The position numbers and the translations under genes were made by a program. This document shows, piece by piece, positions 3,172-34,011 of a DNA stretch of 35,528 nucleotides (positions within the stretch are counted from its first letter, which is position 1; each line of letters starts with the position of its first letter). The notes beneath the pieces were generated by a model. That model was not told the DNA's origin. It did no database searches and saw only the letters and a list, made by a program, of their open reading frames with translations. The stretch is from NCBI GenBank assembly GCA_037446815.1, contig JBBIHX010000013.1, forward strand, positions 1 through 35,528, written 5' to 3'. The DNA comes from Caldilineae bacterium (GTDB lineage Bacteria > Chloroflexota > Anaerolineae > DTLA01).

Positions 3172-3220
3172 GGCTGCCCGTTCGGAAACTTTGCGAGAAC
3201 ATAGTCGGAGGCAGAAGCAA

Positions 3221-4968: not shown

Positions 4969-7707
4969 ATGAAAGACCTGTCAAGGCCCGCGCGAGCCTA
5001 CATTCTGGGCATTCTCGGGTTGACGATAGTTGCCGTCCTGTTCGGCGCCGTGGCCTCGCCGCCGCGGAATGTGGATTGGGCCTTGTTGGGGTTCTTGCTC
5101 GTCGGCGCGATGACGGCGCAGTATTTCACCGTCGTTACGCCCAAGCATCAGCACTATTACCTGACGCCGGCCTTCTTCTTCGCCAGCATCGTGCTCCAAC
5201 ACCCGCTGATTTTCGCCCTTGTGGTGGCGCTGGGGCATGTGCCCGAGTGGCTCAAAGTCAAGTATCGCTGGTATATCCAATCGTTCAACATTGCGGGGCA
5301 CACGCTGGCCGGGTTCGCGGGCAAGACGGTGCTGGCGCTGTTGGTGGGGGCCGAGCGAAACCCCACGCCGAACGTAGCAGGCATCGTGGCGGTGCTGGCT
5401 GCGGCCTCCACGTACATTCTGGTGAACCACCTGCTGGTCGGCATCGTCCTCATGCTGGCGCGCAACGTGAGCCTCCGCGAGTCCCAGGTGCTCAGCCCCG
5501 CGAATCTGCTGACCGACCTGGCGCTGGCGTGCGTGGGCGGGGCCATGGCCTTTCTCTGGATGCTGGGGCCGTGGCTGGTGATCCTGGGCACCGCGCCGCT
5601 GCTGCTCATTCACCGCGCCCTGAGCATTCCGGCCCTGCGCGAGGAGGCGCAGGTGGACGCGAAGACAGGGCTGTACAACGTCAAGTACTTCACCACCAGT
5701 CTGAACGATGAGTTGCGGCGCGCGCGGCGATTCGGTCGCCCCCTTGCCGTCATCATGGCCGATTTGGACGGCTTGCGGCACATCAACAACACGCATGGGC
5801 ACCTGGCGGGCGACGCCGTACTGGCCGCCATCGGCAAGATCATCCGCGAGCAGGTGCGTGAGTACGACGTGGCGGCCCGCTTCGGCGGCGAGGAGTTCGC
5901 CCTCCTCATGCCCGAAACCACCACCGACGAGGGGTATGTGGTGGCCGAGCGCATTCGCAAAGCGGTGGAGTCCACGCCGATTCAGATTCCGACGCGGGTG
6001 GAGCCTATCTACGTAACCATCACGGCGGGGGTGGCGTCCTATCCCACCGATGGGTACGAGCCGCAGCAACTGCTCCATGCTGCCGACGTGGCGCTGTATC
6101 AGGGCAAAGCCTCGGGCAAGAACCGCGTCCGCATGTCGGCTCCTGGACAAGGGCCGGAGCCGCCGATTCCCCCGCCGCCCGCCGACGGCGCCGAGCAGCC
6201 GCCCGCCGCGTCCCCCCCTGGCTCGGAAGGGGCCCCCGCGCCCATGGCTGCTCCGCTCAACCCCGCGGCCGACACGGGGGAGCGTTTCGCTGCGCAGGCG
6301 AAGCCGCGACGCATGCCGAAGGCGGCATGGGCGGTCGTTAGCGCGGTGATGATGTGCGGCCTGATTCTGTGGGCGCTCTATCTCCCGTCCGCGAGCCGAT
6401 TTGACGTAACAGGGCTGCTGATCTTGGCGGGTTTCGCCGGCTTGGCCGAACTGTTCTCCGTGGACCTGTACGGGGCGAGTACCGTGTCGGTCAGTTTCGT
6501 GGCGATTTTTGCGGCGGCGCTGATGTACGGGCCGGTGGGCGCGGCTGTGGTCGGCCCGGTCATCGCCATCGGCCACTGGATCAAGCGGCGGCCTCGCATC
6601 TACCAGGTGGTATTCAACGCGGCGAATCACACGATTTCCAGCACCGTAGCGGCGTTCCTGTTCGCGCTGGCGGGCGTCAAACTCCGACCGGAGAACATTT
6701 TGTTGCTGGCGGTGCCGGTGCTGCTCGCGGGCCTCGTCAACTACTTTATCAGCACCATGCTGGTATCCACGGCGCTGGGGCTGTCGGAGAGGACAAACCC
6801 ATGGCGGTTGTGGAAGGAGCAGTTTCGCTGGTTGGCCGTGCACTACGTGGTGATGGCATTCCTGGCGATGTTCTTCGCGCTGGCGTATCTGACGTTTGGC
6901 GTCTGGGGAGTGGTGGCCTTTCTTGCGCCGCTGCTCATCATGCGCTACGCGCAGAAGCAGTACGTGGATCAGACGGTGCAGAACGTGGCAGCCCTGCGCA
7001 AGGTGAACCAGGAACTGGCCCGCGCGAACGAAGAGATACAAATGATCAACGACGAACTGCTGATGACGCTGGCCAGCGCCATTGACGCGCGCGACCCGTA
7101 TGTGTACGGCCATTCGGCCCGCGTGGCCGAGTACGCTGTGGCCCTGGCGCGAGAGTTGAGCCTGCCGCCGGAGCGGGTGGAACTGGTGCGACGAGCGGCC
7201 CTGCTCCACGACGTGGGCAAGATCGGCCTGCCCGAGCGCGTGCTCAACAAGCGCGGCAACCTCACGGTTGAGGAGTACGAGGTGATGAAACAACACGCCC
7301 TGGCCGCCGATGGCATCCTGGGCGTGTGCCACCAACTCCAGAATCTGGTGCCCATTGTCTCGGCGCACCATGAACGCTGGGATGGCAAGGGCTATCCCAA
7401 AGGCTTGGCCGGCGACAGCGTCCCGTTGGAGGCGCGCATTTTGGCCCTGGCCGACGCGGTGGAAGCCATGGCGTCCGACCGAACCTACCACCGCGCCAAG
7501 CCCGCCGAGGAGATTCTGGCCGAAGTGGAGCGGAACGCCGGAACGCAGTTTGACCCTGCGGTGGCCGCGGCGTTTGTGCGCGTCGTGAAACGCGAGGGCC
7601 CGCAGTTCATCCGCAACTCGGCGCAAGAGGTCAACAGCCGCCGCGGCACAGGCCAATGGCAACCGCCGGAGTGGCTATCGCAAGACTGGCAGACGGAGGC
7701 CGGGTAG
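4969..7707 (+). CDS. membrane diguanylate cyclase / HD-GYP phosphodiesterase fusion with two multi-TM sensor regions
   Basis: Hydrophobic N-terminus; DAKTGLYN...REYD (RxxD I-site)...RFGGEEF; Pro-rich linker; second TM region; LLHDVGK and HHERWDGKGYP. Confidence 0.92.
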   Translation: MKDLSRPARAYILGILGLTIVAVLFGAVASPPRNVDWALLGFLLVGAMTAQYFTVVTPKHQHYYLTPAFFFASIVLQHPLIFALVVALGHVPEWLKVKYRWYIQSFNIAGHTLAGFAGKTVLALLVGAERNPTPNVAGIVAVLAAASTYILVNHLLVGIVLMLARNVSLRESQVLSPANLLTDLALACVGGAMAFLWMLGPWLVILGTAPLLLIHRALSIPALREEAQVDAKTGLYNVKYFTTSLNDELRRARRFGRPLAVIMADLDGLRHINNTHGHLAGDAVLAAIGKIIREQVREYDVAARFGGEEFALLMPETTTDEGYVVAERIRKAVESTPIQIPTRVEPIYVTITAGVASYPTDGYEPQQLLHAADVALYQGKASGKNRVRMSAPGQGPEPPIPPPPADGAEQPPAASPPGSEGAPAPMAAPLNPAADTGERFAAQAKPRRMPKAAWAVVSAVMMCGLILWALYLPSASRFDVTGLLILAGFAGLAELFSVDLYGASTVSVSFVAIFAAALMYGPVGAAVVGPVIAIGHWIKRRPRIYQVVFNAANHTISSTVAAFLFALAGVKLRPENILLLAVPVLLAGLVNYFISTMLVSTALGLSERTNPWRLWKEQFRWLAVHYVVMAFLAMFFALAYLTFGVWGVVAFLAPLLIMRYAQKQYVDQTVQNVAALRKVNQELARANEEIQMINDELLMTLASAIDARDPYVYGHSARVAEYAVALARELSLPPERVELVRRAALLHDVGKIGLPERVLNKRGNLTVEEYEVMKQHALAADGILGVCHQLQNLVPIVSAHHERWDGKGYPKGLAGDSVPLEARILALADAVEAMASDRTYHRAKPAEEILAEVERNAGTQFDPAVAAAFVRVVKREGPQFIRNSAQEVNSRRGTGQWQPPEWLSQDWQTEAG

Positions 7708-13876: not shown

Positions 13877-14017
13877 CGGTTCCAAAGTCTGTTGGTGGCT
13901 GTCATTGCGAGGGCGCGGAGCGGCCGAAGCAATCTCCGGGGCGTGGGATGCTTCGCTTCGCTCGCAATGACACACGAGGAGGGTGCGCCTACGGTTCACC
14001 AACACAAGGTGGAACCG
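13877..14017 (-). repeat. about 141-bp MITE/REP-like element, copy A (inverted)
   Basis: Termini CGGTTCCA...TGGAACCG, internal GTCATTGCGAG...CTCGCAATGAC palindrome; aligns with 15268-15409 and 18739-18879. Confidence 0.85.
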
Positions 14018-14097: not shown

Positions 14098-15159
14098 CTA
14101 CCACGACGCGGCCACTGCCACGGTGCGCGCGCCCTCCACCACCTCGCCCACGATCCAGTATGCCTGGCCCGCCTCGCGCAGGGCCGTCTCCAGCGCCGGC
14201 AGGTGCGCGGGGGGCACCGCGATGAGCAGCCCGCCCGATGTTTCGGGGTCGTACAGCAGCAGTTGCGTCTCGTCCGGGATGCCAGCCGCGAAGGATACAT
14301 GCGGCTTGTAGAACCGTTCGTTGTTGTACGCGCCGCCCGGGAAGACCCACTTGGCGGCGTATTCGTGCGCGCCCGGGAGGAAGGGCAGCGCCTCCAGGAC
14401 GAATCGCAGCCCCACGCCGCTGTTGGCCGCCATCTCCTGCGCGTGGCCCAGCAGGCCGAACCCGGTGATGTCGGTGGCTGCATGCACGCCGGCGGCCTGC
14501 ATGGCGCGCGCGGCGGCCTGGTTCAGGCGCAACATGCTGGCGGTCGCTGCGTCCACGTGGGCAGCATCGGCCAGGCCCTGCTTGAGCGCCGTCGTGATGA
14601 CGCCAACGCCCAGAGGCTTGGTCAGCACAAGGATGTCGCCAACTTGCGCGTTGCTCTTGGTGATGACCCTGGCCGGATGCACCGTGCCGGTTACGCACAG
14701 GCCGAATTTCGGCTCTTTGTCCTCCATGGTGTGGCCGCCGGCCAGCACCGCGCCTGCCTCGGCCACCTTGTCGCCCGCGCCGCGCAGGATGTCGCCGGCG
14801 ACCTCGGGCGGCAGGTCTGGCGGGAACGCGGCGATGCTCAACGCCAGCAGCACCTCGCCGCCCATGGCCCACACGTCGCTCATGGCGTTGACGGCGGCGA
14901 TGGCCCCGTAGGTGTAGGCGTCGTCCACCACCGGCGCGAAGAAGTCCAGCGTCTGGACGATGGCCAGATCCGGCGCAAGGCGGTACACGGCGGCATCGTC
15001 GGCCTTGCCGAGTCCAACGAGCAGGTCGGGGAACTGGGATTCTCGGAATGCGTCTTTTAGTGGCTGCAGAACCTGCGCCAGGGCCTCAGGCCCCATTTTG
15101 CCCGCTCAGCCCGCGCACGAGGCGAGGGCCGTCAGCCGTATCTTGTCGCGTTCGCTCAT
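14098..15159 (-). CDS. selD: selenide, water dikinase (selenophosphate synthetase), selenoprotein with Sec18
   Basis: Frame continues upstream of the called ORF: MSERDKIRLTALASCAG-UGA(15108-06)-AGKMGP; GGAG RBS; DDAAVY, QTLDFF, NAMSDVWAMGG, GGHT, TDITGFGLLGH, DPETSGGLL. Confidence 0.95.
15079..15095 (-). promoter_or_regulatory. bacterial SECIS-like hairpin in selD
   Basis: TGGGGCC-TGA-GGCCCTG at +11 to +27 after the UGA, G in the apical loop. Confidence 0.6.
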
Positions 15160-15248: not shown

Positions 15249-15267
15249 CCCCGCGGGGCGCGGGATT

Positions 15268-15409
15268 CGGTTCCATCTTGTGTTGGTGAAACGCATGGAC
15301 ACTTTCCTCGTGTGTCGTTGCGAGCGAAGCGAAGCAACCTCACGCCCCAGGGATTGCTTCGGGCGCTCCGCGCCCTCGCAATGACAAATACCAACAGACT
15401 TTGGAACCG
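15268..15409 (+). repeat. about 142-bp MITE/REP-like element, copy B
   Basis: Near-identical to 18739-18879; terminal inverted repeats. Confidence 0.88.
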
Positions 15410-17287: not shown

Positions 17288-18415
17288 TTACACCTCCGAG
17301 GTTGTTTTGGCGCGCATCGTGAAGCCGATGAGCATGCAGAGCACAAGCCCGATGATGACTGCCCACTGGCCATAGGGCGTGAGGCCACCCACCTTGACCA
17401 CGCCATCCACGACCGTATCGGGCGTGCCCGCCAGCGCGAAGTTGTGCGAGAACCCGGCTCCGACGATCATGCCGATGACGAAGATGCCGGCGTCGCCGTC
17501 GCCCTCACCGGCCAGAAACAGCTGTCGTCCGGGGCACCCGCCTGCCAGTGCGAAGGCCAGCCCGGCCAGGGACATGCCCAGGAAGTTCCACAAGTGGCTA
17601 GAATGGGCCGTAGGCTGGGGCGAGAAGCCGACCTTCACCTGGCCCAACGCCAGGTTCGTGAGGAACGCAACCACGAGGAGCGCGCCGACGCCGCTGATAA
17701 GGTGGGTGTCGCGCATCAGGATGACATCGCGGATGGAGCCCATGGTGCAGAACCGTGTGCGCTGGGCGAGGAAGCCGATGATGAGGCCCGCTCCCAAGGA
17801 GATCAGGATGGGCGCGTGGAGCGAGCCTGGCCCGCTCTTGCTGAAGAATATTGCGCCATCCTTCGTGAACTGTGGACGCAAGATCAGGAGGAGGAGCAGG
17901 CTCAACATGAAGATTGGCATGATCCAGCCGACAGCGGTGTGGGTCCTTTGGGCGCGGCCCAGGTTATACCCGGCCTTCAGGAACAGCACGCCGACGGTGA
18001 TACCGGCAGTCAGCCCGGCCAGGCCCAGAATCGCGTTCAGGTCCCCGCCCGCCAGTCGCAACAGCGCCCGCCACGGGCAGCCCAGGAACGCCAGGGCGCC
18101 GATCATGGCGAACATCCCCAGGAAGAAGCGGACGATGGGAGCCGAGCCCGCGCGCGGCTTGAACTCCTTGAACAGAAGCGCCGCAATCAAGGAGCCGAGC
18201 ACGAAGGCGATGATCTCCGGGCGGATGTACTGCACCGCAGCGGCTCGGTGCAGCCCCAACGCCCCTGCGATGTCCCGCTCAAAGCAGGCCACGCAGATGC
18301 CCATGTTGGGCGGATTGCCGGCCTTCTGGAGCAGGGGAGCCAGAAGGCCGATGGCTGCCCCGGCCAGGATAATCCCCCAGCGCGAGGCAAAGAAGCGGGT
18401 GAGTCGTTCGGTCAT
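17288..18415 (-). CDS. yedE: YedE-family putative selenium transporter
   Basis: GNPPNMGICVACFERDIAG, YIRPEI, GCPWR, RFCTMG, GGCPGRQ; multi-TM; AGGAGG before ATG 18415. Confidence 0.9.
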   Translation of the reverse strand: MTERLTRFFASRWGIILAGAAIGLLAPLLQKAGNPPNMGICVACFERDIAGALGLHRAAAVQYIRPEIIAFVLGSLIAALLFKEFKPRAGSAPIVRFFLGMFAMIGALAFLGCPWRALLRLAGGDLNAILGLAGLTAGITVGVLFLKAGYNLGRAQRTHTAVGWIMPIFMLSLLLLLILRPQFTKDGAIFFSKSGPGSLHAPILISLGAGLIIGFLAQRTRFCTMGSIRDVILMRDTHLISGVGALLVVAFLTNLALGQVKVGFSPQPTAHSSHLWNFLGMSLAGLAFALAGGCPGRQLFLAGEGDGDAGIFVIGMIVGAGFSHNFALAGTPDTVVDGVVKVGGLTPYGQWAVIIGLVLCMLIGFTMRAKTTSEV

Positions 18416-18473
18416 GGCACGCACCTCCTGTTGATGTATTCTCCACGCGGTCGGATGACGCTCCGCTGTGGGC

Positions 18474-18510
18474 AACAGAAAACCGCTGCCATCACGCGCT
18501 GGCAGCGGCC
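18474..18510 (-). terminator. intrinsic terminator (attenuator) in the yedE leader
   Basis: Minus strand CCGCTGCCA-GCGCGTGA-TGGCAGCGG-TTTTCTGTT about 60 nt before the yedE start. Confidence 0.8.
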
Positions 18511-18533
18511 CAGGAGGTCGCGGCTAGTTGAGC

Positions 18534-18641
18534 CTAGGGCGCGGTTCCGACGCCGCACCCCAGCGCGGGATGGCCGGCCTGTGGGCGCCAACTGGCACCC
18601 AAGGCTATGCCTCATGTGCGGCGACGAACCACCTTGTACAC
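18534..18641 (-). CDS. putative selenocysteine-containing leader peptide MYKVVRRRT-U-GIALGASWRPQAGHPALGCGVGTAP
   Basis: GAGGAG (18654-49), 7 nt, GTG 18641; UGA codon 10 at 18614-12 followed by SECIS-like hairpin; TAG 18536-34 just before the terminator. Confidence 0.7.
18577..18605 (-). promoter_or_regulatory. bacterial SECIS-like hairpin in the leader peptide
   Basis: GCCT-TGGGTGCC-AGTT-GGCGCCCA-c-AGGC; loop GU at +20/+21 from the UGA. Confidence 0.7.
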
Positions 18642-18691
18642 GTTGGCTCTCCTCGTCCGATTTTCCGGATGGTCTCATTCGGTCTGGGGTG

Positions 18692-18719
18692 ATTATAGCA
18701 CGCTCTGGGCAAAATGCAA
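18692..18719 (-). promoter_or_regulatory. promoter of the yedE operon
   Basis: TTGCAT-16nt-TATAAT with TG extension. Confidence 0.72.
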
Positions 18720-18738
18720 CTTCATCCGTCGCCGGCGT

Positions 18739-18879
18739 CGGTTTCATCTTGTGTTGGTGAAAAGCATGAGCACTCTCCTCGTGTGTCGTTGCGAGCGAAG
18801 CGAAGCAACCTCACGCCCCGGGGATTGCTTCGGGCGCTCCGCGCCCTCGCAATGACAAATACCACAGACTTTGAAACCG
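18739..18879 (+). repeat. about 141-bp MITE/REP-like element, copy C
   Basis: Termini CGGTTTCA...TGAAACCG; partial copy also at about 47-94. Confidence 0.88.
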
Positions 18880-18896
18880 TGTCCGTCGCCGGGCGT

Positions 18897-19192
18897 CGGT
18901 TCCATCGCGCCGTAGCCCGCTCCCTCACCCCGACCCTCTCCCGCGCCGCGGGCGAGGGGGCGTGTCTTCACGTGCGACGCACCTCCAAGGTGCGCCGCAC
19001 GTTGGCCCTCCATCTGTCCTGCTGATCTGAAGGCGCAGCATCTCGGTCGGCAAAATGCTTCGCGGCTGGTACGTTTCAGACTGGGGGAGGACTACCGCGC
19101 GGGGTCAACCTCACCCATCCCCACCCAGCCCTCCCCTTCCCTCTCCGCCGGCGGAGAGGGAAGGGGAGGGTATGGGAGGGGTTAGGTGAGGT
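18897..19192. repeat. cluster of REP-like palindromes including a perfect 42-bp palindrome
   Basis: CCCTCACCCCGACCCTCTCCC unit; GTGCGACGCACCT..AGGTGCG..GCAC (also at 992-1020); perfect palindrome 19129-19170. Confidence 0.75.
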
Positions 19193-19219
19193 CAAATTGC
19201 TCTACGGGATTCTCCGGCG

Positions 19220-24807: not shown

Positions 24808-25164
24808 GTGCAAGACAACTACGGCTTCCTCGGCTTGTACCTGCTCATCGCCATTGCCTTCCCCTTTGTGGCTTTGGGCGTGGCGTACCTCCTTCGGCCC
24901 AAACGGCCCGACCCCGTGAAGTCTTCCACATACGAGTGCGGCCTTGAAACCATCGGCGAGACGTGGGTTCAGTTCAAGGCGCAGTACTATCTGTTCGCGC
25001 TCGTGTTCGTGGTGTTTGACGTGGAGACGGTGTTCCTGTACCCGTGGGCGGTGGCCTACAATCAGTTGGGGCTGTTCGCCTTGGTAGAGGCGCTGATCTT
25101 CGTGGGGATTTTGGTCGCGGGCCTGGCCTATGCCTGGCGCAAGGGCGCGCTCCGCTGGATGTAG
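24808..25164 (+). CDS. nuoA: NADH-quinone oxidoreductase subunit A
   Basis: [26 protein letters not shown] start after GGAGG. Confidence 0.95.
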
Positions 25165-25202
25165 CGCCCGATTGCGTGGTATCTGTCGCGTTGGGAGAAC
25201 GT

Positions 25203-25724
25203 ATGTTTGAGGATGACGCAATTCCCGTAGAGCAAATTGACCGCAACGTGTTCCTGACCACGGTGGACTGGATTTACAACTGGGGCCGGCAGTATTCCAT
25301 GTGGCCGACGATGTTCGGGTTGGCGTGCTGCGCCATTGAGATGATTGGCGCTTCCACGGCGCGCTACGACATCGCGCGGTTTGGCATGGAGTTCTACCGC
25401 GCATCCCCGCGCCACGCCGACCTGATGATTGTGGCGGGCACCATCACCCACAAGATGGCGCCCCAGGTCAAGCGCATCTGGGACCAGATGCCCGAGCCCA
25501 AGTATTGCCTCGCCATGGGCTCGTGCGCCATCAGCGGCGGCATCTTCAAGTCGTATGCCGTGCTCCAGGGGGCCGACGAGATTCTGCCCGTGGACGTGTA
25601 CGTGCCCGGGTGCCCGCCCCGCCCCGAGGCCCTGTTTGACGGCATCCGCAAGATTCACCAGATGGTGCGCGCCCAGTCCATCAAGACCGTTCGCTGGTAT
25701 CGCAATGAGAAGCAACAAGCCTAG
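25203..25724 (+). CDS. nuoB: NADH-quinone oxidoreductase subunit B
   Basis: [30 protein letters not shown]. Confidence 0.95.
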
Positions 25725-25792
25725 CGCCGGCGCACTCGACACGTGCTTTGGCGCTTCTGTTTGCGCTGATGCCTATCCGGAGAGGTAGAGCA

Positions 25793-26290
25793 GTGACCAA
25801 CGAAGAAATCCTGGCAAAATTGCAAGAGGCGTTCCCGGATGTCGCGCTCCGAGTCCAGACGGAGGAGACGAAGGATTTCACCCTCATCGTCCCCGCCGAG
25901 CGCCTGGTGGACGTGGCGACCCATCTCCGCGACCATCTGGGGTTTGACTACCTGTCCAACGTTACCAGTGTGGATTACCCCGACCGTTTTGAGGTTGTGT
26001 ATCACCTGTTCAGCATGAAGCGCGGCGGGGGCGTCCTCACGCTCAAGGTGCACCTGCCCGACAAGGAGCACCCGGTGGTGGACTCCGTAACGCCCATCTG
26101 GCCGGGGGCCAACTACCAGGAGCGCGAGGTGTATGACCTGATGGGCATCTCCTTCCGCAATCACCCGGACCTGCGCCGCATCATGCTGTGGGACGGCTTC
26201 CCGGGGCACCCCCTGCGGAAGGATTTTGAGAATCGGACGTACACGTACAAAGAATTGGAGCCCACCCGCCCCAAGCCGCCAAACTGGTAG
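25793..26290 (+). CDS. nuoC: NADH-quinone oxidoreductase subunit C
   Basis: FEVVYHL, EREVYDLMGI.F..HPDLRRI, GHPLRKDF. Confidence 0.95.
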   Translation: MTNEEILAKLQEAFPDVALRVQTEETKDFTLIVPAERLVDVATHLRDHLGFDYLSNVTSVDYPDRFEVVYHLFSMKRGGGVLTLKVHLPDKEHPVVDSVTPIWPGANYQEREVYDLMGISFRNHPDLRRIMLWDGFPGHPLRKDFENRTYTYKELEPTRPKPPNW

Positions 26291-26338
26291 GCGCGGCCAG
26301 GCTCATCACGCTTGATTCCGAGAAACAGCGGGGGAACA

Positions 26339-27439
26339 ATGCTAAAGACCGAGACGATCACAGTCAACATGGGGCCTCAACACCCCAGCACCCACGGCGT
26401 CTTCCGCATGATCCTGACCCTGAACGGGGAAACCATCGTGGACCTCAAGCCGATGTTCGGCTATCTCCACCGCGGGCTGGAGAAGACCAGCGAGAGCCGA
26501 ACGTACTTGCAGGCCGTCCCGTTCACCGACCGCCTGGACTACATCTGCTCCATGAGCAACAACTTCGCCTACGCGGTGGCGGTGGAGAAACTGGCGGGGA
26601 TTGAGGTGCCCCTGCGCGCCGAGTACATCCGCGTCATCATGGCGGAACTCACCCGTCTGGTCAACCACATGCTGGCCGTCGGGTTCCTGTTCAACGACCT
26701 GGGCGCGTGGTACACGCCCGTGGTCTACGCGTTCCGCGAGCGCGAGCGCATCCTGGACCTGTTTGAGATGGCGAGCGGCTCCCGCATGATGTGCAACTAC
26801 ATTCGCCCGGGCGGCGTCTCGGCCGACCTGCCGGCGGACTTCCTCCCGCTCCTGCGGAAGATGATTCCCCACCTGGAGAACTTCGTCCGCGAGATTCGGT
26901 TCTACCTGTCGGACAACGAGATATTCCGGGCCAGGGCCATAGGCGTGGGGTTCCTGCCCGCGGATGTGGCGGTGGCCTACAGCATCACCGGGCCTGTGCT
27001 GCGGGCGTCTGGCGTGAAGTACGACGTGCGCAAGGCCGAGCCGTACTCCATCTACGACCAGTTTGAGTTTGACGTGCCCACCCAGGTGGCGGGGGATGTC
27101 TACGCCCGCTATCTCCAGCGCCTGGACGAGATGGACGAGAGCCTGAAAATCCTGAGGCAGGCCGTGGAGCGCATCCCCGACGGGGAGTACGCCACCAAGG
27201 TCCCGTCGCGCCTGCGCCCGCCCAAGGGCGAAGCCTACGCCCGCATTGAGGCGCCCAAGGGCGAACTGGGGTTCTACCTGGTCAGCGACGGTTCGCCGAA
27301 CCCGTACCGCTGGCGCAACCGCCCGCCGTCGCTCATCAACCTGTCGGCGCTGCGCGAGATGTGCCTGGGGCACAAGGTGGCCGACGTGGTTACCATCCTG
27401 GGAAGCATTGACATTACCCTTGCCGATGTAGACCGCTGA
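26339..27439 (+). CDS. nuoD: NADH-quinone oxidoreductase subunit D
   Basis: [38 protein letters not shown] end. Confidence 0.95.
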
Positions 27440-27449
27440 TGGGGGAGAT

Positions 27450-28637
27450 ATGCAAGTTCTAGATGACCTCTGGATACGAATCGCACAGTGGTTCCGCGGC
27501 GTCCTGGAGTCGTTCCTGCCGCCTTGGGCCGTACAGTTGACGATGGATTTGCTGGGCATCGTGCTGCTCCTTGCGTTCGGCGTGGTCGTCGTGCTCGTGT
27601 TCACGTACATGGAGCGCAAGGTCATCGCCCGGGTGGGAGACCGCCTCGGCCCCAACCGCGCCGGGCCGTTCGGCGTCTTGCAGGCCTTCGCCGACGCCAT
27701 CAAGATGCTCACGAAGGAGGATGTTACGCCGACGAACGCCGACCGTTGGCTGTTCCTGGCCGCGCCAATCATCGTCATCATCCCCGCCGTGCTGCTGTAC
27801 GCCGTGCTCCCCTTTGGGCGCGGGATGGTGGGGGTGGACCTCAGCATCGCCGTCGTGTTCGTTGTGGCGATGGGGGGCATTCCCATCCTGTCCATGCTGA
27901 TGGCCGGCTGGGCCTCCAACAACAAGTATGCGCTCCTAGGCGGGTTCCGAACCGTGGCGCAACTCATCAGTTACGAGATTCCGATGGTGGTGGCGCTGCT
28001 CACTGTGGTTCTGCTGGCCGGCACCATGTCCACCGTCGGCATCGTGGAGGCGCAGGCGTCGTTCCCGTTTGCCCTGGTAACGCCCGCGGCCTTCATCGTG
28101 TACATGGTAGCGGGGCTTGCGGAATTGAACCGCACGCCCTTTGACCTGCTGGAGGCGGACTCGGAGATTGTGGCCGGCTACTTCATTGAGTACAGCGGCA
28201 TGAAGTTCGCCATGTTCTTCCTCGCCGAGTTCATCAACCTGTTCATGGTAGCGGGCATGATCACCACCCTGTTCTTGGCGGGATGGCAGTGGCCCATTCT
28301 CCCCTCGTGGCTGTGGTTCCTCATCAAGACGGTCGCGGTGATTTTCGTGATTATGTGGATTCGTTCCACAATCCCGCGCTTCCGCATTGATCAGATGCTG
28401 AGTTTCGCGTGGAAGGCGCTTGTGCCGGTGTCGCTGGTCAACCTGTTCCTGGTCGCGCTCGTGGCGAAGTTGCTAGCGCCGGGCTGGGCGCGCACGGGCG
28501 TGCTGTTCGTGAGCAACCTGGCGCTGCTTGCGGGGGCCATGGCCATCATGCAGTACAACGCGCGCAAGCAGGAGCAGCGGGCGCGGGCCGCGGGCGAAGC
28601 CGCCATCAAGCGCTATTACGGCAGCGAGGTTCGTTGA
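27450..28637 (+). CDS. nuoH: NADH-quinone oxidoreductase subunit H
   Basis: ERKV..R.GPNRAGPFG.LQ..AD.IK..KE, SNNKYALLGG, NRTPFDL.EADSE. Confidence 0.95.
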   Translation: MQVLDDLWIRIAQWFRGVLESFLPPWAVQLTMDLLGIVLLLAFGVVVVLVFTYMERKVIARVGDRLGPNRAGPFGVLQAFADAIKMLTKEDVTPTNADRWLFLAAPIIVIIPAVLLYAVLPFGRGMVGVDLSIAVVFVVAMGGIPILSMLMAGWASNNKYALLGGFRTVAQLISYEIPMVVALLTVVLLAGTMSTVGIVEAQASFPFALVTPAAFIVYMVAGLAELNRTPFDLLEADSEIVAGYFIEYSGMKFAMFFLAEFINLFMVAGMITTLFLAGWQWPILPSWLWFLIKTVAVIFVIMWIRSTIPRFRIDQMLSFAWKALVPVSLVNLFLVALVAKLLAPGWARTGVLFVSNLALLAGAMAIMQYNARKQEQRARAAGEAAIKRYYGSEVR

Positions 28638-28644
28638 GGTGGAT

Positions 28645-29175
28645 ATGTACGGGAAGGGCATCGCCAAGGGCCTCTGGGTTACCCTGAAGCACATCTGGGG
28701 AACCTACGCCAAAGACATCAAGAAGTTTCCCCGACGCTACGCCCCTGGCGGCATCGCCAAGCGTACCGAGTACGACCTGTACGGGCTGTTCACGCTCCAG
28801 TATCCGGAGGAGCGATATGAGATGTTCCCGCGGTTTCGCGGGGCGCTCATGCACCTGCGCAATCCGGAGACCGGCGAGCCGAATTGCACGGCGTGCGGCG
28901 CTTGCGAGCGGGCTTGCCCCCACGGCGTCATCACCGTAGAGGGCGAGGGTAAGGGGAAAGACCGCAAAGTTACAGCCTACCGGTACGACCTGGGCCGCTG
29001 CATCTTCTGCCGCCTGTGTGTGGAGTCGTGCAACTTCAACGCCATTGAGATGAGCCGCGAGTACGAACTCTCGCGCTACAAGAAGGACTTCATTCTGGAG
29101 TTGGACGACTTGCTGAAGATCGGCGACAAGTACGGCATCCACAAGACCGGTGAGGCGTGGGGGGTTACGGAATGA
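28645..29175 (+). CDS. nuoI: NADH-quinone oxidoreductase subunit I
   Basis: TLQYPEE, CTACGACERACP and CIFCRLCVESC 4Fe-4S motifs. Confidence 0.93.
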   Translation: MYGKGIAKGLWVTLKHIWGTYAKDIKKFPRRYAPGGIAKRTEYDLYGLFTLQYPEERYEMFPRFRGALMHLRNPETGEPNCTACGACERACPHGVITVEGEGKGKDRKVTAYRYDLGRCIFCRLCVESCNFNAIEMSREYELSRYKKDFILELDDLLKIGDKYGIHKTGEAWGVTE

Positions 29176-29663
29176 GCCTGCCGCAGATCGTTTTTCTCGC
29201 AGTCGGACTGATTACCTTGGGGGCGGCGGTGGCCGTGGTAACCAGCCGCAACGTGCTCCACAGCGCGTTCCTGCTGGCGCTGACGTTTTTCGGCGTGGCC
29301 GTGCTCTACGTGCTGCTGGATACGCCGTACCTGGCGGCCGCCCAGGTGCTGGTGTACATCGGCGCCGTCTCGGTGCTCATTATCTTCGCCATCATGCTGA
29401 GCCGCAAGGTGGCCGCGCCTGATTTGGTGCAGCGCAATAGCCAGTGGCTCCTGGCGCTCATCGTGGCGGTGCTGCTGTTCGGGGCGCTGGCCTACCTCAC
29501 GCTCCAGGCGGCCTGGCCCGCGGCCAAGCAGGCGCTGGGCGTGGATGCCATCGGCGGGCTGGGGCAGGCGTTCGTGGGCACCTACGCCTTGCCGTTTGAG
29601 GTGGTGTCGGTCGTCTTGCTGGTGGCCCTGGTCGGCGCCATCATCATCGCGCGCGAGCGATAG
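29172..29663 (+). CDS. nuoJ: NADH-quinone oxidoreductase subunit J
   Basis: QVLVYIGAVSVL, LPFEVVS. Confidence 0.93.
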   Translation: MSLPQIVFLAVGLITLGAAVAVVTSRNVLHSAFLLALTFFGVAVLYVLLDTPYLAAAQVLVYIGAVSVLIIFAIMLSRKVAAPDLVQRNSQWLLALIVAVLLFGALAYLTLQAAWPAAKQALGVDAIGGLGQAFVGTYALPFEVVSVVLLVALVGAIIIARER

Positions 29664-29676
29664 CGGGAGTAGCCAT

Positions 29677-29985
29677 ATGATTCCTCTGTCCTGGTTTCTA
29701 ATCCTGGGGGCGGCGCTGTTCTGCATCGGCATGTACGGCGTCCTGTCCCGCCGCAACGCCATCGGCATTCTGATGGGCGTGGAACTCATCCTGAACGCCG
29801 TGAACGTGAACCTGATTGCCTTCTGGCGCTATCGGACGCCCGATCACCTGACGGGCTTGGTGTTTGCGGTGTTCGTCATGGCCATCGCCGCCGCCGAGGC
29901 CGCGGTCGGCTTGGCGCTCATCATCGCCATCTACCGCACGCGCAACACTGTGATCGTGGAAGATGTGGATTTGCTGAAAATGTAA
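29677..29985 (+). CDS. nuoK: NADH-quinone oxidoreductase subunit K
   Basis: LMGVELILNAVN, AAAEAAVGLA. Confidence 0.95.
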   Translation: MIPLSWFLILGAALFCIGMYGVLSRRNAIGILMGVELILNAVNVNLIAFWRYRTPDHLTGLVFAVFVMAIAAAEAAVGLALIIAIYRTRNTVIVEDVDLLKM

Positions 29986-29990
29986 GCAGG

Positions 29991-30102
29991 AGCCATTAGC
30001 CTCTAGCCCTTGGCCTTTAGCCCCTAGCCCTTGGTTGGCAGTGGGACTAATGGCTCTATCGGCCAAAGGCTAAAGGCTAACGGCTAACGGCTAGAGGCTA
30101 AC
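29991..30102. repeat. 7-nt periodic tandem repeat and its inverse between nuoK and nuoL
   Basis: (TAGCCNN)n followed by (GGCTAAN)n. Confidence 0.85.
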
Positions 30103-30123
30103 CGTCCGAACATCCAAGCGGGA

Positions 30124-32181
30124 GTGAACTCACCGATGACAGAACTGTTTGACTGGGTACGACTGATACCGCTCTTTCCGTTTCTGGCGTTCGCGATCAT
30201 CCTGCTGTTCACCCAGCGCAACCAGAAACTGAGCACGTATCTGGCGTGGGTCGGGATCGGGCTGGCGTGGATTCTGGGCTGGACGATTGCCTTCCGCGCC
30301 ATGGCCGATCCGCATGTCCTGGAAGAGGGATTCCGCGCGCCCATCTTCGCCATCCCGACGGGGCGCGGCCTTCTGGAACTGGGCTTCCAGGTGGACGCCC
30401 TCACAACGGCCATGCTGTTCATGGTTCCGTTCGTGTGCCTGATGATCTTCATCTACTCCAAAGGGTACATGCACGGCGACCCGCGCTACTCGCGGTTCTT
30501 CGCCTACGTCTCGCTGTTCGCTACGGGCATGCTCGGTCTCATCGTGTCCGATAACTTGCTGCTGCTGTACATCTTCTGGGAAGTCATGGGGCTGTGCTCC
30601 TACCTGCTCATCGGGTTCTGGTTTGAGAAGCCGTCGGCGATGAAGGCGGGGCTGAAGGCGTTCATCACCACGCGCATCGGCGATGTTATCATGTTCCTGG
30701 GCATGCTCCTGCTGTACTCCACGACGGGCACGCTCAGTTTCCACGAGATTTTCTCGGAGGAGACGCTCCACTTCCTGAAGGAGACGATGGTCTGGGTGCC
30801 GCTGGTGGGCACGGTGCCGGTGGCGCCTGTGATCGCGATCCTTCTGTTCGGCGGGGCGGTGGGCAAGTCGGCCCAGTTCCCGCTACACGTGTGGCTTCCC
30901 GACGCCATGGAAGGCCCCACGCCGGTCTCGGCCCTCATCCATGCGGCCACGATGGTGTCGGCGGGCGTGTACCTGGTAGCCCGCATGTTCCCCATCTTCG
31001 CGCTGCTGCCCGAGACGGCGTCCATGTCGGTTGTCGCCTTCATCGGCGGGTTCACGGCGCTGTTTGCGGCGACCATCGCCCTGGCGCAGGACGACATCAA
31101 GCGCGTGCTGGCCTACTCCACCATCAGCCAACTGGGCTACATGATTGCGGCGCTGGGCGTGGGCGCGTATGTGGCGGCCACGTTCCACCTCATTACCCAC
31201 GCCTTCTTCAAGGCGCTGCTGTTCCTCGGCTCCGGCTCTGTGATTCACGGCGCGGGGACGCAGGACATGATGGAGATGGGCGGCCTGCGCAAGAAGATGC
31301 CCATCACGTTCTGGACGTTCCTGGTGGGCATGTTGGCGCTGGCGGGGGTTCCGCCCTTCGCGGGCTTCTGGAGCAAGGACGAAATCCTGGCCCACGCCTT
31401 TGAGGAGTTCCTGCACAAGGGCGTGGCGTCGTGGCCGTTCTTCGTGTGGCTGGTGCTGTCGCTGGGCGCGCTGCTGACGGCGTTCTACATGGCGCGGCAG
31501 GTGTTCCTCACCTTCTACGGCGAGACCCGCTCGCATCACATGCACGCCCACGAAAGCCCGAAGGTGATGACCTACCCGCTCATCGCCCTGGCGGTCTTCG
31601 CGGCCTTGCTCGGGTTCGCGGGCGTCCCGGAGGAGTTCCCGGTGCTGGGGCCGCTGTTCGGGCACAACTTCTTCCATCACGTGGTGGGCCACGCCTACCC
31701 GGCCACGCCGCTGAATTGGGGCGTGATGGGGCTGTCGGTGCTGCTGGCGCTGACGGGCCTGTTCTTGGGGTGGGTGGTGTACGGGCGCAACCCGCTGAAG
31801 CACGGCCAGCCCGACCCGTTGACCAAATTGGGGCCGATGTACACGCTGCTGCGCAACAAGTACTACATTGACGAGTTCTACAGCAAGGTCATCGTGCGGC
31901 CTGCCGTGGCCCTTGCCACCCTGCTGTTCCGCTTTGACAACTCGTGGGTGGTGGATCCGTTCGTCAACCTGGTGGGCAAAGTCGGCGTCTGGCTGTCGGA
32001 CCTGGGGCGCATCTTTGACCTGAACATCATAGACGGCATCGTCAACGGCGTGGCGGCCGTAACCGCGTGGTTCGGCAAGATTCTGCGCCTGACCCAGACC
32101 GGCAAGGCCCAGAACTACTTGCTGGTCGCCGTGTTGACGGTCCTGTTGTTGCTGGGATTGTATCTCTACCTGCCCATGTAG
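30124..32181 (+). CDS. nuoL: NADH-quinone oxidoreductase subunit L
   Basis: WEVMGLCSYLLIGFW, GKSAQFPLHVWLPDAMEGPTPVSALIHAATMV, HAFFKALLFL; start 30124 or 30136. Confidence 0.95.
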   Translation: MNSPMTELFDWVRLIPLFPFLAFAIILLFTQRNQKLSTYLAWVGIGLAWILGWTIAFRAMADPHVLEEGFRAPIFAIPTGRGLLELGFQVDALTTAMLFMVPFVCLMIFIYSKGYMHGDPRYSRFFAYVSLFATGMLGLIVSDNLLLLYIFWEVMGLCSYLLIGFWFEKPSAMKAGLKAFITTRIGDVIMFLGMLLLYSTTGTLSFHEIFSEETLHFLKETMVWVPLVGTVPVAPVIAILLFGGAVGKSAQFPLHVWLPDAMEGPTPVSALIHAATMVSAGVYLVARMFPIFALLPETASMSVVAFIGGFTALFAATIALAQDDIKRVLAYSTISQLGYMIAALGVGAYVAATFHLITHAFFKALLFLGSGSVIHGAGTQDMMEMGGLRKKMPITFWTFLVGMLALAGVPPFAGFWSKDEILAHAFEEFLHKGVASWPFFVWLVLSLGALLTAFYMARQVFLTFYGETRSHHMHAHESPKVMTYPLIALAVFAALLGFAGVPEEFPVLGPLFGHNFFHHVVGHAYPATPLNWGVMGLSVLLALTGLFLGWVVYGRNPLKHGQPDPLTKLGPMYTLLRNKYYIDEFYSKVIVRPAVALATLLFRFDNSWVVDPFVNLVGKVGVWLSDLGRIFDLNIIDGIVNGVAAVTAWFGKILRLTQTGKAQNYLLVAVLTVLLLLGLYLYLPM

Positions 32182-32258
32182 TGATTTCCTGGCGCGCGTA
32201 ACAAGTTGACAACTTGTCCTACACCGAGAACTTGTGGGGAACCGAGGAGGAAGCATAG

Positions 32259-33761
32259 ATGGATTTTCCCATACTGACCGTGATCACGTTCGTACCGCTG
32301 CTGGGCAGCCTCATCGTCCTGTGCATGCCCAAGGAGAGGGAGCGGCTCATCAAGCAGTTCTCCATCGCCGTTTCCTTCATCCCGCTCATCCTGTCCATCT
32401 TGCTGTGGGTCAATCTGGACAAGGACGCGGGCATCCAGTTTGAGGAACTGGTGGCCTGGATTCCGGCGATTCACGTGAACTACCACGTGGGGGCCGACGG
32501 GCTGAGCGTTCCGCTCATCTTCCTCACGGCATTGCTGACGACGCTGTCGCTCTTCTACTCGTCGTTTACCATCAAGAACAGGGTCAAGGAGTTCTTCTTC
32601 CTGTTCTTGTTGCTGGAAATGGGGATGTTCGGCGTGTTCGTGTCGCTGGACTTCGTGCTGTTCTACGTGTTCTGGGAGATCGGCCTGGTGCCCATGTACT
32701 TCCTCATCGGGGTGTGGGGCGGGCCGCGCCGAGAGTACGCCGCCATCAAGTTCTTCCTCTACACGCTGGTGGGCAGCGTGGCCATGCTGTTGGCGATTAT
32801 CGGCATCTACCTGAACACGGGCACGTTTGACATCATCCAGGCGGCGGCGCTGCGTCCGTTCGTGGAGAACTTCACGCTGGGGGCGCTGGCGTTCTGGGCC
32901 ATCTTCCTGGCCTTCGCCATCAAGGTGCCCATGTTCCCGTTCCACACCTGGCTTCCGGATGCTCACGTAGAGGCGCCCACGGCGGGCAGCGTGATCCTTG
33001 CCGGCATCCTGCTGAAGTTGGGCTGCTACGGCTTCTTCCGCATCCTGCTGCCCATGTTCCCGGAGCAGTTCCACTACTTCGCGCCCGTGGTGGCCGTGCT
33101 GGCCGTGATTAGCATTGTGTACGGCGCGATGGTCTCCATGGCGCAGTGGGACCTCAAGAAACTCATCGCCTACTCCTCGGTGAGCCACATGGGATACGTG
33201 ATGCTGGGCCTGGCCGCGGCGGCGTTTGCGCTGGGTTCCAAGGACATGCTCACGAGCCAGGCGATTGCCATGAACGGCGCGGTGTTCCAGATGTTCAACC
33301 ACGGGATTATCACGGGCGCGTTGTTCTTCCTCGTCGGCGTCATCTACGAGCGCGCCCACACCCGCGACCTGAAGGCCTTCGGCGGCCTCGCCAGCAAGGT
33401 CCCGTACTACTACGGCATCATGTTGGTGGCGGGTTTGGCGTCGCTGGGGCTGCCCGGCTTGGCGGGGTTCTGGGGCGAGTTCTTCGTGTTCCGCGGGACG
33501 TTCGCCATCGCGCCGGTGTATGCGGCCGTGGGCGTCATCGGCATTGTGTTCACCGCCGCGTACATCCTGTGGAAGGTGATTCAGCACGTGTTCCTGGGCC
33601 CCTTCAACGAGAAGTGGGCAGACCTTCGCGATATGGATACCTATGAGAAGATCACGCTGTGGCCGCTGGTGGGCTTCATGGTGCTGTTCGGCCTGTACCC
33701 GCCGCTGATTGTGGACACGATCAACGCGGCGATGACGCGGTTGCTGTCCGGGCTTATGTAG
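32259..33761 (+). CDS. nuoM: NADH-quinone oxidoreductase subunit M
   Basis: FYVFWE, KFFLYT, KVPMFPFHTWLPDAHVEAPT, AYSSVSHMG. Confidence 0.95.
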   Translation: MDFPILTVITFVPLLGSLIVLCMPKERERLIKQFSIAVSFIPLILSILLWVNLDKDAGIQFEELVAWIPAIHVNYHVGADGLSVPLIFLTALLTTLSLFYSSFTIKNRVKEFFFLFLLLEMGMFGVFVSLDFVLFYVFWEIGLVPMYFLIGVWGGPRREYAAIKFFLYTLVGSVAMLLAIIGIYLNTGTFDIIQAAALRPFVENFTLGALAFWAIFLAFAIKVPMFPFHTWLPDAHVEAPTAGSVILAGILLKLGCYGFFRILLPMFPEQFHYFAPVVAVLAVISIVYGAMVSMAQWDLKKLIAYSSVSHMGYVMLGLAAAAFALGSKDMLTSQAIAMNGAVFQMFNHGIITGALFFLVGVIYERAHTRDLKAFGGLASKVPYYYGIMLVAGLASLGLPGLAGFWGEFFVFRGTFAIAPVYAAVGVIGIVFTAAYILWKVIQHVFLGPFNEKWADLRDMDTYEKITLWPLVGFMVLFGLYPPLIVDTINAAMTRLLSGLM

Positions 33762-33777
33762 GGACGCGGCCGGGGGC

Positions 33778-33971
33778 GAGATTCTTCGCTTCGCTCGGAA
33801 TGACAGATGGGGGCGGGGGTTCTCGCTCCGCGTGGGATGGCAAGACGGTTTGTGTCATGCTGAGCGGCGGAGCCGCGAAGCATCTCGGGAGGCGAGATTC
33901 TTCGCTTCGCTCAGAGATTCTTCGCTTCGCTCAGAATGACAGATGGGGGGCGGGGGCTCTCGCTCCGCGTG
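33778..33971. repeat. REP-like direct repeats between nuoM and nuoN
   Basis: 57/58-bp near-identical copies at 33778-33834 and 33914-33971; tandem 20-mer GAGATTCTTCGCTTCGCTCA at 33894-33933. Confidence 0.88.
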
Positions 33972-34011
33972 AAATCAGAAGGGACGCACCATCGTTTGTG
34001 GAGGGTGTGCA

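Follow-up and report, generated by a model that had tools for sequence, protein, structure and literature searches.

A short upstream open reading frame (uORF) carrying an in-frame UGA precedes yedE on a contig of a Caldilineae bacterium, and an intrinsic terminator stands between the two. The question raised by this locus is what such an arrangement does ahead of a gene with homologues that their sources call 'YedE family putative selenium transporter'. The DNA analyzed here, referred to below as the window, is a stretch of 35,528 nt from contig JBBIHX010000013.1, and the leader occupies positions 18719-18416 on its minus strand. It is proposed, with a probability of about 0.7, that this leader is a transcription attenuator in which a selenocysteine (Sec) UGA, served by its own selenocysteine insertion sequence (SECIS), acts as the control codon and reports Sec-decoding capacity to the yedE operon. 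A device of this kind had been suggested for this DNA in an earlier reading of its letters (hereafter the original prediction).

Direct reading of the minus strand recovered every part that the original prediction had placed there, i.e., the promoter, ribosome binding site, 35-codon uORF, UGA, hairpin, and terminator. The uORF begins with a GTG at 18641, which has the Shine-Dalgarno (SD) sequence GAGGAG (18654-18649) 7 nt ahead of it, and runs through 8 codons, the UGA, and 25 further codons to a TAG at 18536-18534; with TGA read as U, its product is VYKVVRRRT-U-GIALGASWRPQAGHPALGCGVGTAP. The UGA at 18614-18612, the proposed Sec control codon, is an invariant column in the three alignments A1, A2, and A3. 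A SECIS-like hairpin, GCCU-UGGGUGCC-AGUU-GGCGCCCA-c-AGGC (18605-18577), follows it, with a 4-bp lower stem, an 8-bp upper stem, and a bulged C at 18581. Its AGUU loop (18593-18590) comprises nt 22-25 counted from the U of the UGA, so that G is at nt 23 and U at nt 24, the positions that these bases also hold in Escherichia coli fdhF. The terminator, GCCGCUGCCA-8 nt-UGGCAGCGGU followed by UUUUCUGUU, lies at 18509-18474 and has a 10-bp stem (18509-18500/18491-18482) and a U-rich tail; its hairpin (18509-18482) was scored at -19.8 kcal/mol by a dedicated terminator scan and is also contained in the minimum free energy (MFE) fold. The antiterminator 5' strand, 18574-18552, is located within the uORF on the 3' side of the UGA (about UGA+40 to +64) and has 18509-18488 as its partner. 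The 19-bp complementarity that had been claimed between these two segments is real (RNAduplex -42.0 kcal/mol; z = -5.4, z scores of this type being relative to 200 dinucleotide shuffles).

The MFE fold of the whole leader (-127.4 kcal/mol, z = -2.67, equaled by 2 of 200 shuffles) contains the post-UGA hairpin, the terminator, a long helix termed P1, and an outer helix between GCGACCUCCUG and the yedE SD. Upstream of the uORF, TTGCAT (18719-18714) and TATAAT (18697-18692), separated by a 16-nt spacer, form a promoter-like site on the minus strand by direct reading, and the TG at 18700-18699 (reading TGc) provides a TGn extended -10. Both hexamers are retained in the three closest relatives (L001-L003; compared loci are cited by L numbers), in which the flanking sequence has diverged. 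A 111-aa open reading frame (ORF) at 18412-18747 on the minus strand, which overlaps the leader in a different frame and belongs to no Pfam family, was treated as spurious.

Close relatives of YedE are very numerous, and most carry the label Anaerolineae or Chloroflexota. A total of 583 relatives of yedE were confirmed in a collection of species-representative genomes, and the best 80 of them (69-94% identity) were kept with their flanks; together with the window they gave 81 regions, each represented by the 450 nt upstream of yedE. Most of the compared records are metagenome-assembled genomes, and their taxonomic labels may be imperfect. The strict rules under which these regions were scanned required a perfect stem of 6 bp or more after a UGA, with a 4-nt loop, G at the second loop position, and a loop start at nt 21 or 22; the full pattern demanded in addition an in-frame ATG, GTG, or TTG 4-12 codons before the UGA and an in-frame stop 15-45 codons after it. 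The UGA with its hairpin was present in 52 of the 81 regions, and 49 of the 81 also had the in-frame start; the downstream stop was again found in 49. An in-frame start with an SD 4-mer ahead of it accompanied the hairpin in 38 of the 81. As controls, the reverse complements of the 81 regions and 20 dinucleotide shuffles were scanned; the full pattern occurred in none of the 81 reverse complements and on average 0.05 times per 81 shuffled regions (hairpins: 1.2 per 81). When both strands of 1,084,132 bases were searched for the UGA and hairpin, 54 of the 77 matches fell within the 450-nt stretches upstream of yedE. One of the other matches, on the minus strand of L020 (2449), is a long palindrome and was set aside as unrelated to the leader.

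A covariance model of the SD-uORF-UGA-hairpin module, built from a seed of 54 sequences and 88 positions, found the element directly upstream of yedE in the window and in 63 of the 80 loci at E <= 1e-3. Ten of these matches were outside the seed (L006, L010, L011, L012, L027, L028, L038, L040, L042, and L057). The comparative test outlined in the original prediction was thus carried out on yedE orthologs, and the order of ribosome binding site, uORF, UGA, SECIS-like hairpin, and terminator proved to be conserved. By label, the strict pattern was present in 42 of 60 Chloroflexota-type loci and in 6 of 20 others, the latter being Syntrophorhabdaceae, Spirochaetales, Fermentibacteria, Moduliflexus, Eisenbacteria, and one unlabelled record. 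The element appears to be widespread in Chloroflexota and scattered in other phyla; it is also present in a cultured isolate, Ornatilinea apprima P3M-1 (L050). Elsewhere the covariance model gave weak or partial matches only. Three partial matches, in L025 (5847-5885, minus strand), L006 (6106-6144, minus strand), and L052 (6550-6588, minus strand), are antisense to the selD coding region just upstream of the selD UGA. Just before its UGA, the coding sequence of selD carries a palindromic hairpin, GGCGCUGACCAGCGCC, the antisense of which weakly matches the leader SECIS model, and the L025 and L006 matches were judged to be chance matches to this palindrome.

The hairpin can be compared with the bacterial SECIS consensus, which according to a 2026 review has a loop of 3-9 nt and an upper stem of 4-16 bp, a G within the first two loop positions that is mostly followed by G or U, a distance of 16-37 nt from the UGA to the loop, and an MFE of -7.5 kcal/mol or lower (PMC13188914). 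The window hairpin satisfies all four of these criteria (AGUU loop, 8 bp, 18 nt, and -27.2 kcal/mol over the 55 nt from the UGA). In that review, the E. coli fdhF type of element is a stem-loop directly 3' of an in-frame UGA, and the leader hairpin resembles it in this position, in its 4-nt apical loop with G and then U at loop positions 2 and 3, in its 8-bp upper stem, and in its 18-nt spacing (PMC13188914). Unlike the SECIS of an enzyme gene, the leader copy sits in a 35-codon regulatory uORF, has no bulged U on the 5' side, and has a 3' flank that doubles as the antiterminator strand. Counted from the U, the loop start was nt 21 or 22 in each of the 52 regions with the hairpin in the strict scan. 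Among 55 leaders the loops were GGUU (17), GGUC (10), AGUU (8), AGGU (3), GGGC (3), and others, and nearly all kept a G among their first two positions. For 54 sequences, 81.1% of the stem cells were paired versus 38-46% with the partner strand slid, 11 of 12 pairs changed on both sides, and none of 500 shuffles attained the score. SelB would probably bind the hairpin and direct Sec insertion at the UGA; the frame that stays open beyond the UGA through insertions and deletions and the Sec-type selD of these organisms lend this indirect support. At the gathering score, Rfam 15, including its SECIS families, was searched over the whole window and had no match in the leader; at E <= 10, only chance matches to microRNA models were obtained within 18300-18900.

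The uORF is conserved as a reading frame. A start 4-12 codons before the UGA was found in frame 0 in 49 of the 52 hairpin-bearing regions and seldom in frames 1 and 2. The commonest distance from start to UGA is 9 codons (30 of 55 leaders), and beyond the UGA 27 of 55 have 25 open codons and the remainder 17-44. In a full-length alignment of 34 sequences an aligned stop (CCCUGA or CCCUAG) was in the UGA frame in 31, even though the spacer from UGA to stop has eight different lengths (75, 78, 81, 90, 93, 96, 102, and 105 nt). Fourteen leaders depart from the modal 78 nt, and 11 of them do so by multiples of 3 (binomial P = 7e-4, uncorrected for relatedness). Such preservation of the frame beyond a stop codon is as predicted for a recoded UGA.

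These observations bear on the possibility that the hairpin works without translation, as a riboregulator that titrates or binds SelB and so shifts the balance between terminator and antiterminator. Its fit to the SECIS consensus is as expected for such an element, and the SECIS-like element reported in the 5' untranslated region (UTR) of E. coli selAB is a precedent. Such a riboregulator needs no SD, no in-frame start, and no invariant UGA 18 nt before the loop, nor does it need an in-frame stop that is maintained through insertions and deletions, yet all of these are conserved, and we regard this explanation as improbable.

The product of the uORF, as judged from its sequence, looks like a leader peptide rather than a functional selenoprotein. 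The conserved peptide stretches GAGWRP and HT(P/S)GGGG are the translation of the hairpin and the antiterminator strand, and the residues flanking U are variable in the 55 leaders, with no redox motif and neither CxxU nor UxxC. Because the conserved peptide consists of translated RNA elements and has no redox motif, it resembles a leader peptide and not a working selenoprotein. A functional selenopeptide of 35 residues, e.g., a selenium carrier, sharing the yedE transcript and equipped with an ordinary SECIS and a leaky inter-cistronic terminator, would account for a uORF, UGA, and SECIS arranged as in a selenoprotein gene and for neighboring genes that traffic selenium. It is nevertheless highly improbable, since the peptide is conserved where it encodes the hairpin and antiterminator strand and varies beside U, and since the covarying pairing of the uORF with the terminator would be left unexplained. 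Moreover, the product matched none of the NCBIfam families, which include leader peptides and small selenoproteins, at E <= 10.

Several features of individual uORFs may also be recorded. A His codon (CAC or CAU) is frequent at 2-5 codons ahead of the UGA, in many cases preceded by aromatic or hydrophobic residues, and is found as well in short leaders without P1 (e.g., L056, L070, L073, L044, L043, and L074); it could reflect an RNA constraint or an effect of the nascent peptide on termination at the UGA. In L011 and L027 (2756-2843 in both) the sequence reads ...CGC UGA AUU UGA, with an extra in-frame UGA two codons before the conserved one. This could be either a premature stop or a pair of tandem Sec control codons, and by analogy the tandem UGA-AUU-UGA could resemble the tandem Trp codons of trpL. 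The leader of L006 (2729-2815) matches the model (E = 2.7e-9), yet its loop is one base nearer to the UGA and an in-frame stop closes the frame one codon later, which may point to decay of this copy or to an error of assembly.

Downstream of the uORF, 48 of 55 leaders have a terminator (a hairpin of -10 kcal/mol or lower and then a U-rich tract) at a distance of 17-56 nt from the uORF stop, and the same scan found none in the other seven (L031, L054, L067, L069, L074, L075, and L077). The terminator stem is 96% paired and covaries. In the 48 leaders used for duplex tests, the stretch between hairpin and stop is complementary to the 5' arm, the loop, and the first 3'-arm bases of the terminator, with a median of -32.3 kcal/mol. 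The median z of this antiterminator complementarity is -3.07; z was below -2 in 34 of the 48, and in 32 no more than 5 of 200 shuffles were as good. When the SECIS and antiterminator were taken together as one structure on alignment A2, 86.7% of cells were paired (31-48% when slid) and none of 500 shuffles attained the score. In the core of the antiterminator helix (columns 88-93:267-272), GCAYACG-like bases pair with the terminator loop region; this core is 98.8% paired, with double changes at 4 of 5 pairs. The alternative 'off' structure, consisting of P1, the SECIS, the terminator, the downstream hairpin, and the pairing of anti-SD with SD, is 79.3% paired versus 40-57% when slid. RNAalifold, which was blind to the proposal, recovered the P1 core, the SECIS upper stem, and the terminator. 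The helix covariation that the original prediction had asked to see was accordingly found for the SECIS stem, the terminator, and the antiterminator, and its claim that terminator and antiterminator exclude each other was upheld, the two being conserved alternatives in both the alignment and the duplex tests. Nor was anything found among the results by which it had proposed to be refuted, as far as these can be computed, such as a UGA position and hairpin that are not conserved in orthologous leaders.

Three further elements, i.e., the P1 helix, an anti-SD, and a hairpin with GUGGAGA before the yedE SD, go beyond the original prediction. The P1 5' strand (18630-18616), comprising uORF codons 4-9 and a candidate counterpart of region 1 of trp, pairs in the MFE fold with 18558-18543, and this 3' strand shares GCGGC (18556-18552) with the antiterminator strand. 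P1 occurs in the window and in the majority of Anaerolineae-type leaders and is missing from the short forms. Its register differs between the window clade and the majority; a column count under-reports it for this reason, and duplex energies were used instead. The anti-SD, GCGACCUCCUG (18521-18511, containing CCUCC), can pair with the yedE SD region at 18430-18421, a helix found in the MFE fold. The attenuator is probably also wired to sequestration of the SD in this way. The hairpin CCAC-a-GCGG...CCGC-GUGG followed by AGA(A/U), at 18471-18437 between the terminator and the yedE SD, is kept in most loci as CCACnGCGG...CCGCGUGG; its half-helices are 82.8% and 60.3% paired and show double changes in 3 of 4 pairs each. 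It could act as a decoy, be a site of processing, or space the anti-SD:SD helix. The GUGGAGA after the terminator, at the hairpin that leads to the SD, resembles an SD itself. A possible third hairpin, P3, formed by CUGGGGUGCGG (18563-18553) and CCGCGCCCUAG (18544-18534), would take in the uORF stop codon; 77.4% of its cells are paired versus 39-53% when slid, and its covariation is modest.

A conserved and covarying structured leader with a terminator as expression platform is also what a metabolite-binding riboswitch would show, for instance one for a selenium compound, to which the uORF and UGA would be incidental. Such a riboswitch is scarcely credible here, since the leader belongs to no Rfam family, lacks a multi-helix junction with conserved unpaired nucleotides, and has as its conserved single-stranded features the SD, start, UGA, and stop, all in one frame.

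With these parts, their order and conservation, and the mutually exclusive pairings at hand, the dynamics of a Sec-dependent attenuator can be proposed. With ample Sec-tRNASec and SelB, the ribosome would decode the UGA, pass over the antiterminator strand, and park at the uORF stop, with this strand on one side and the emerging terminator on the other; the local hairpin of the terminator would then form and end transcription before yedE. If selenium or Sec-tRNASec were scarce, the ribosome would halt with the UGA in its A site, covering codons 4-9 and about 12-15 nt downstream. P1 would thereby be kept open, and the SECIS apex, the antiterminator strand, and the P1 3' strand would stay free. 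The free antiterminator strand would capture the 5' arm of the terminator as it emerged, and polymerase would read into yedE, yedF, the lyase gene, and the DUF3343 gene and, in many genomes, into selD. Without any translation, P1 could form in Anaerolineae-type leaders and would favor termination, as in trp. Pairing of the anti-SD upstream of the terminator with the yedE SD would be a likely second layer.

We infer with moderate confidence that the direction of the switch is such that read-through turns the operon off. This direction is favored by the conservation of the post-UGA frame and of the place of the stop, which matter only if a ribosome that reads through has a role. Since the stop is at least 17 nt before the terminator in all 48 leaders, the read-through ribosome would not melt the terminator. 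Six short leaders (L056, L066, L068, L070, L072, and L073) have the end of the antiterminator strand at -3 to +6 nt relative to the stop, where a ribosome terminating translation would cover the strand; these leaders have no P1 complementarity, and thus their default state would be 'on'. Shutting off the operon upon read-through would also fit a negative feedback on a selenium importer. Equilibrium folding was also modeled with ribosome footprints. The terminator had a median probability of 0.92 in ribosome-free RNA and of 0.58 when a ribosome was placed on the UGA; placing it on the stop gave 0.89 and placing it on the antiterminator strand gave 0.97, and this last footprint favored the terminator in 46 of the 48 leaders.

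A number of findings weigh against the attenuator or against its proposed direction. The footprint model separates the states poorly: moving the ribosome from the UGA to the stop raised the terminator probability in 21 of 48 leaders and lowered it in 12. In the forms with 25 codons after the UGA, including the window, 14 nt separate the end of the antiterminator strand from the stop; just the 3' end of the strand is covered when a ribosome stands there, and the model therefore needs kinetics or steric separation. Release factor 2 (RF2) should also release ribosomes at the UGA, after a dwell of whatever length. Helices beyond the core are less distinct: the P1 complementarity has a median z of -1.57, with z below -2 in just 18 of 48 leaders, and the anti-SD:SD pairing has a median z of -2.09, with z below -2 in just 24 of 48, and is 61.9% paired on a MAFFT alignment. 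The element was not detected by the covariance model at E <= 1e-3 in 17 of the 81 regions. Three of the 34 aligned stops (L011, L047, and L066) are out of frame, these leaders using another nearby in-frame stop; L006 has lost the frame and has no start in range; and the extra UGA of L011 and L027 lies 24 nt before the loop, which is within the 16-37 nt range of a SECIS. The compared sequences are related to each other, and the shuffle controls overstate significance to that extent. A scan of 18200-19200 with a consensus promoter and terminator scanner called no promoter-like and no terminator-like site; the promoter was not called because its -35 matches the consensus at just 3 of 6 positions. 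The hairpin of the single window copy is of unexceptional stability in this G+C-rich DNA (z = -1.54, 15 of 200 shuffles as good), and the case rests on conservation instead. Finally, SelB binding, Sec insertion, the 3' ends, and a response to selenium are predictions from the sequences.

Some of these points would suit the same attenuator working with the opposite polarity. In that case, slow SelB-dependent decoding would hold the ribosome on the UGA and melt P1, so that with Sec-tRNASec at hand the antiterminator would form and the operon would be on with selenium, whereas without Sec RF2 would quickly free the ribosome, P1 would re-form, and transcription would terminate. That the P1 5' strand consists of uORF codons 4-9 and that P1 overlaps the antiterminator strand are in accord with this, as are the 12 of 48 modeled leaders with a lower terminator probability at the stop and the 25-codon forms, in which a ribosome at the stop leaves most of the antiterminator strand uncovered. 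The opposite polarity is nonetheless unlikely. It does not account for the conserved open frame beyond the UGA, for insertions and deletions that keep the frame, or for the conserved stop position, and it would leave the short leaders without P1, whose stop is at the end of the antiterminator strand, switched on after release at the UGA. Positive feedback on a selenium importer would, in addition, seem physiologically less plausible.

The attenuator with read-through as the off signal presupposes that the organism decodes Sec, and the genes downstream of the leader are relevant in this respect. On the minus strand, yedE has its SD CAGGAGGU at 18430-18423 and its coding sequence from the ATG at 18415 to 17288 (Pfam Sulf_transp, E = 2.9e-17). 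It is followed on the same strand by a TusA/YedF ORF (17406-17074), a class-V aminotransferase gene of the cysteine desulfurase or Sec lyase-like type (16990-15833), and an ORF for a DUF3343 selenium/sulfur carrier (15992-15612), all three assigned by Pfam and with provisional start codons. The selD gene (14098-15159, minus strand) has an in-frame UGA at 15108-15106 (CAG-U-AGK) with a hairpin loop at nt 21-23 after the UGA. In the alignment with E. coli SelD (3u0o; E = 3.1e-75) the U falls on the catalytic Cys17, and this UGA at a catalytic Cys/Sec position indicates that the organism decodes Sec. Standard ORF calling shortens the window selD to 332 aa, with a start at 15096, because selD is a selenoprotein gene. 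No tRNA gene was found in the window, and no selA or selB match was found among the 20 other large window ORFs that were scanned. Among the 80 loci, selD was visible in the flanks of 37, its catalytic codon being TGA in all 37; the leader was present in 33 of these and absent in 4. In L016, L024, L030, L051, and L054, selD (Sec codon at about 4430-4500) follows directly after yedE and a short gene on the same strand, and the leader may control selenophosphate synthetase besides the transporter where selD adjoins yedE in this way.

A direct repeat of 135 nt (93% identical; 15259-15393 and 18730-18864) brackets the block from the leader through yedE, yedF, and the lyase gene to the DUF3343 gene. 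One copy stops 10 nt short of the -35 hexamer; the DUF3343 gene and selD flank the other. Shorter partial copies occur at 40-94, 13945-13986, 33778-33819, and 33914-33955. The repeat has an internal inverted repeat (cgaagcaa...ttgcttcg) and looks like a dispersed element of the type of repetitive extragenic palindromes or miniature inverted-repeat transposable elements (REP/MITE-like). Elsewhere in the window, a c-di-GMP-I-GGC riboswitch at 1368-1453 on the plus strand (68 bits; gathering score 59) has downstream of it two tandem subtilase genes with C-terminal pentapeptide repeats (1588-3171 and 3191-4861), which are followed by a GGDEF/HD-GYP protein gene (4969-7707). A complex-I (nuo) type cluster at 25044-35478 on the plus strand encodes the 20-kDa and 30-kDa subunits, a 4Fe-4S protein, and three Proton_antipo_M proteins and has no apparent link to the leader.

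No description of a leader peptide or attenuator with a Sec codon was found in open-access papers and bioRxiv, subscription journals and supplements aside, which agrees with the statement in the original prediction that none was known. YedE, YedF, DUF3343, and a LysR-type regulator were proposed in a comparative study that does not use the word 'leader' in its accessible text, in which both uses of 'upstream' refer to neighboring genes (PMC5322559). Reviews of prokaryotic selenoproteomes list a Sec-containing YedE-family protein and, in their accessible parts, no leader (PMC9312934; PMC13188914). Bacteria would, if the reading favored here is right, possess a dedicated cis sensor of Sec-decoding capacity, a leader peptide with the SECIS-programmed UGA as its sole informative codon, in which the efficiency of recoding probably sets the expression of YedE, its partners, and often selD. 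It would then be the first natural attenuator built on a recoding event and the first RNA-level sensor of selenium status in bacteria, and the regulated variable would be the working capacity of the Sec-insertion machinery and not a free metabolite. A recoded stop would form a new class of control codon for leader-peptide attenuation, and YedE, YedF, and DUF3343 (and SelD) would be functionally tied to Sec synthesis. On the practical side, the leader would be a compact natural reporter of the efficiency of UGA-to-Sec recoding for selenoprotein engineering, and the dozens of aligned SECIS hairpins would define what the SelB of Chloroflexota recognizes.

Among known systems, Thanbichler and Bock are said to have described in 2002 a SECIS-like element in the 5' UTR of E. 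coli selAB that is bound by SelB near the translation start. The yedE leader is similar in that a hairpin of the SECIS type regulates genes of the selenium pathway. The selAB element is not known to have an in-frame UGA, uORF, or terminator, whereas the yedE leader conserves all of these and an antiterminator as well. In prfB, which encodes RF2, an early in-frame UGA senses RF2 through +1 frameshifting in its own coding sequence. The yedE leader would share with it the use of an early in-frame UGA to sense the capacity of its reading machinery, but prfB is not known to have a SECIS, a terminator, or a leader peptide.

In architecture, the leader may be likened to trpL, hisL, leuL, and thrL of E. 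coli, which are leader-peptide transcription attenuators of amino-acid operons. As in the trp type, a short translated leader contains the control codon, an intrinsic terminator precedes the first structural gene, an antiterminator excludes the terminator, most copies have a helix that may correspond to 1:2 and overlaps the control codon, and the position of the ribosome would decide the fold. The Sec leader differs in that its control codon is a single recoded UGA and not a run of sense codons, in that its decoding would need SelB and a cis hairpin nested between regions 1 and 2, and in that failure would mean termination or halting at a stop codon rather than stalling on a hungry sense codon. 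Furthermore, its genes take up and traffic an element and do not synthesize the carbon skeleton of the amino acid.

Leader-peptide attenuators of amino-acid operons are summarized in the accessible part of PMC3892789, which also reports that in fdhFSec of Treponema primitia selenium governs transcript elongation within the selenoenzyme gene, near the SECIS of that gene, and raises the downstream transcript. There, as proposed for the yedE leader, the success of UGA decoding and the coupling of transcription to translation control elongation (PMC3892789). As far as the accessible text allows the comparison, the yedE leader differs from fdhFSec in being a dedicated leader with a separate terminator and antiterminator, in preceding genes that do not encode selenoproteins, and in its sign, which would be the opposite.

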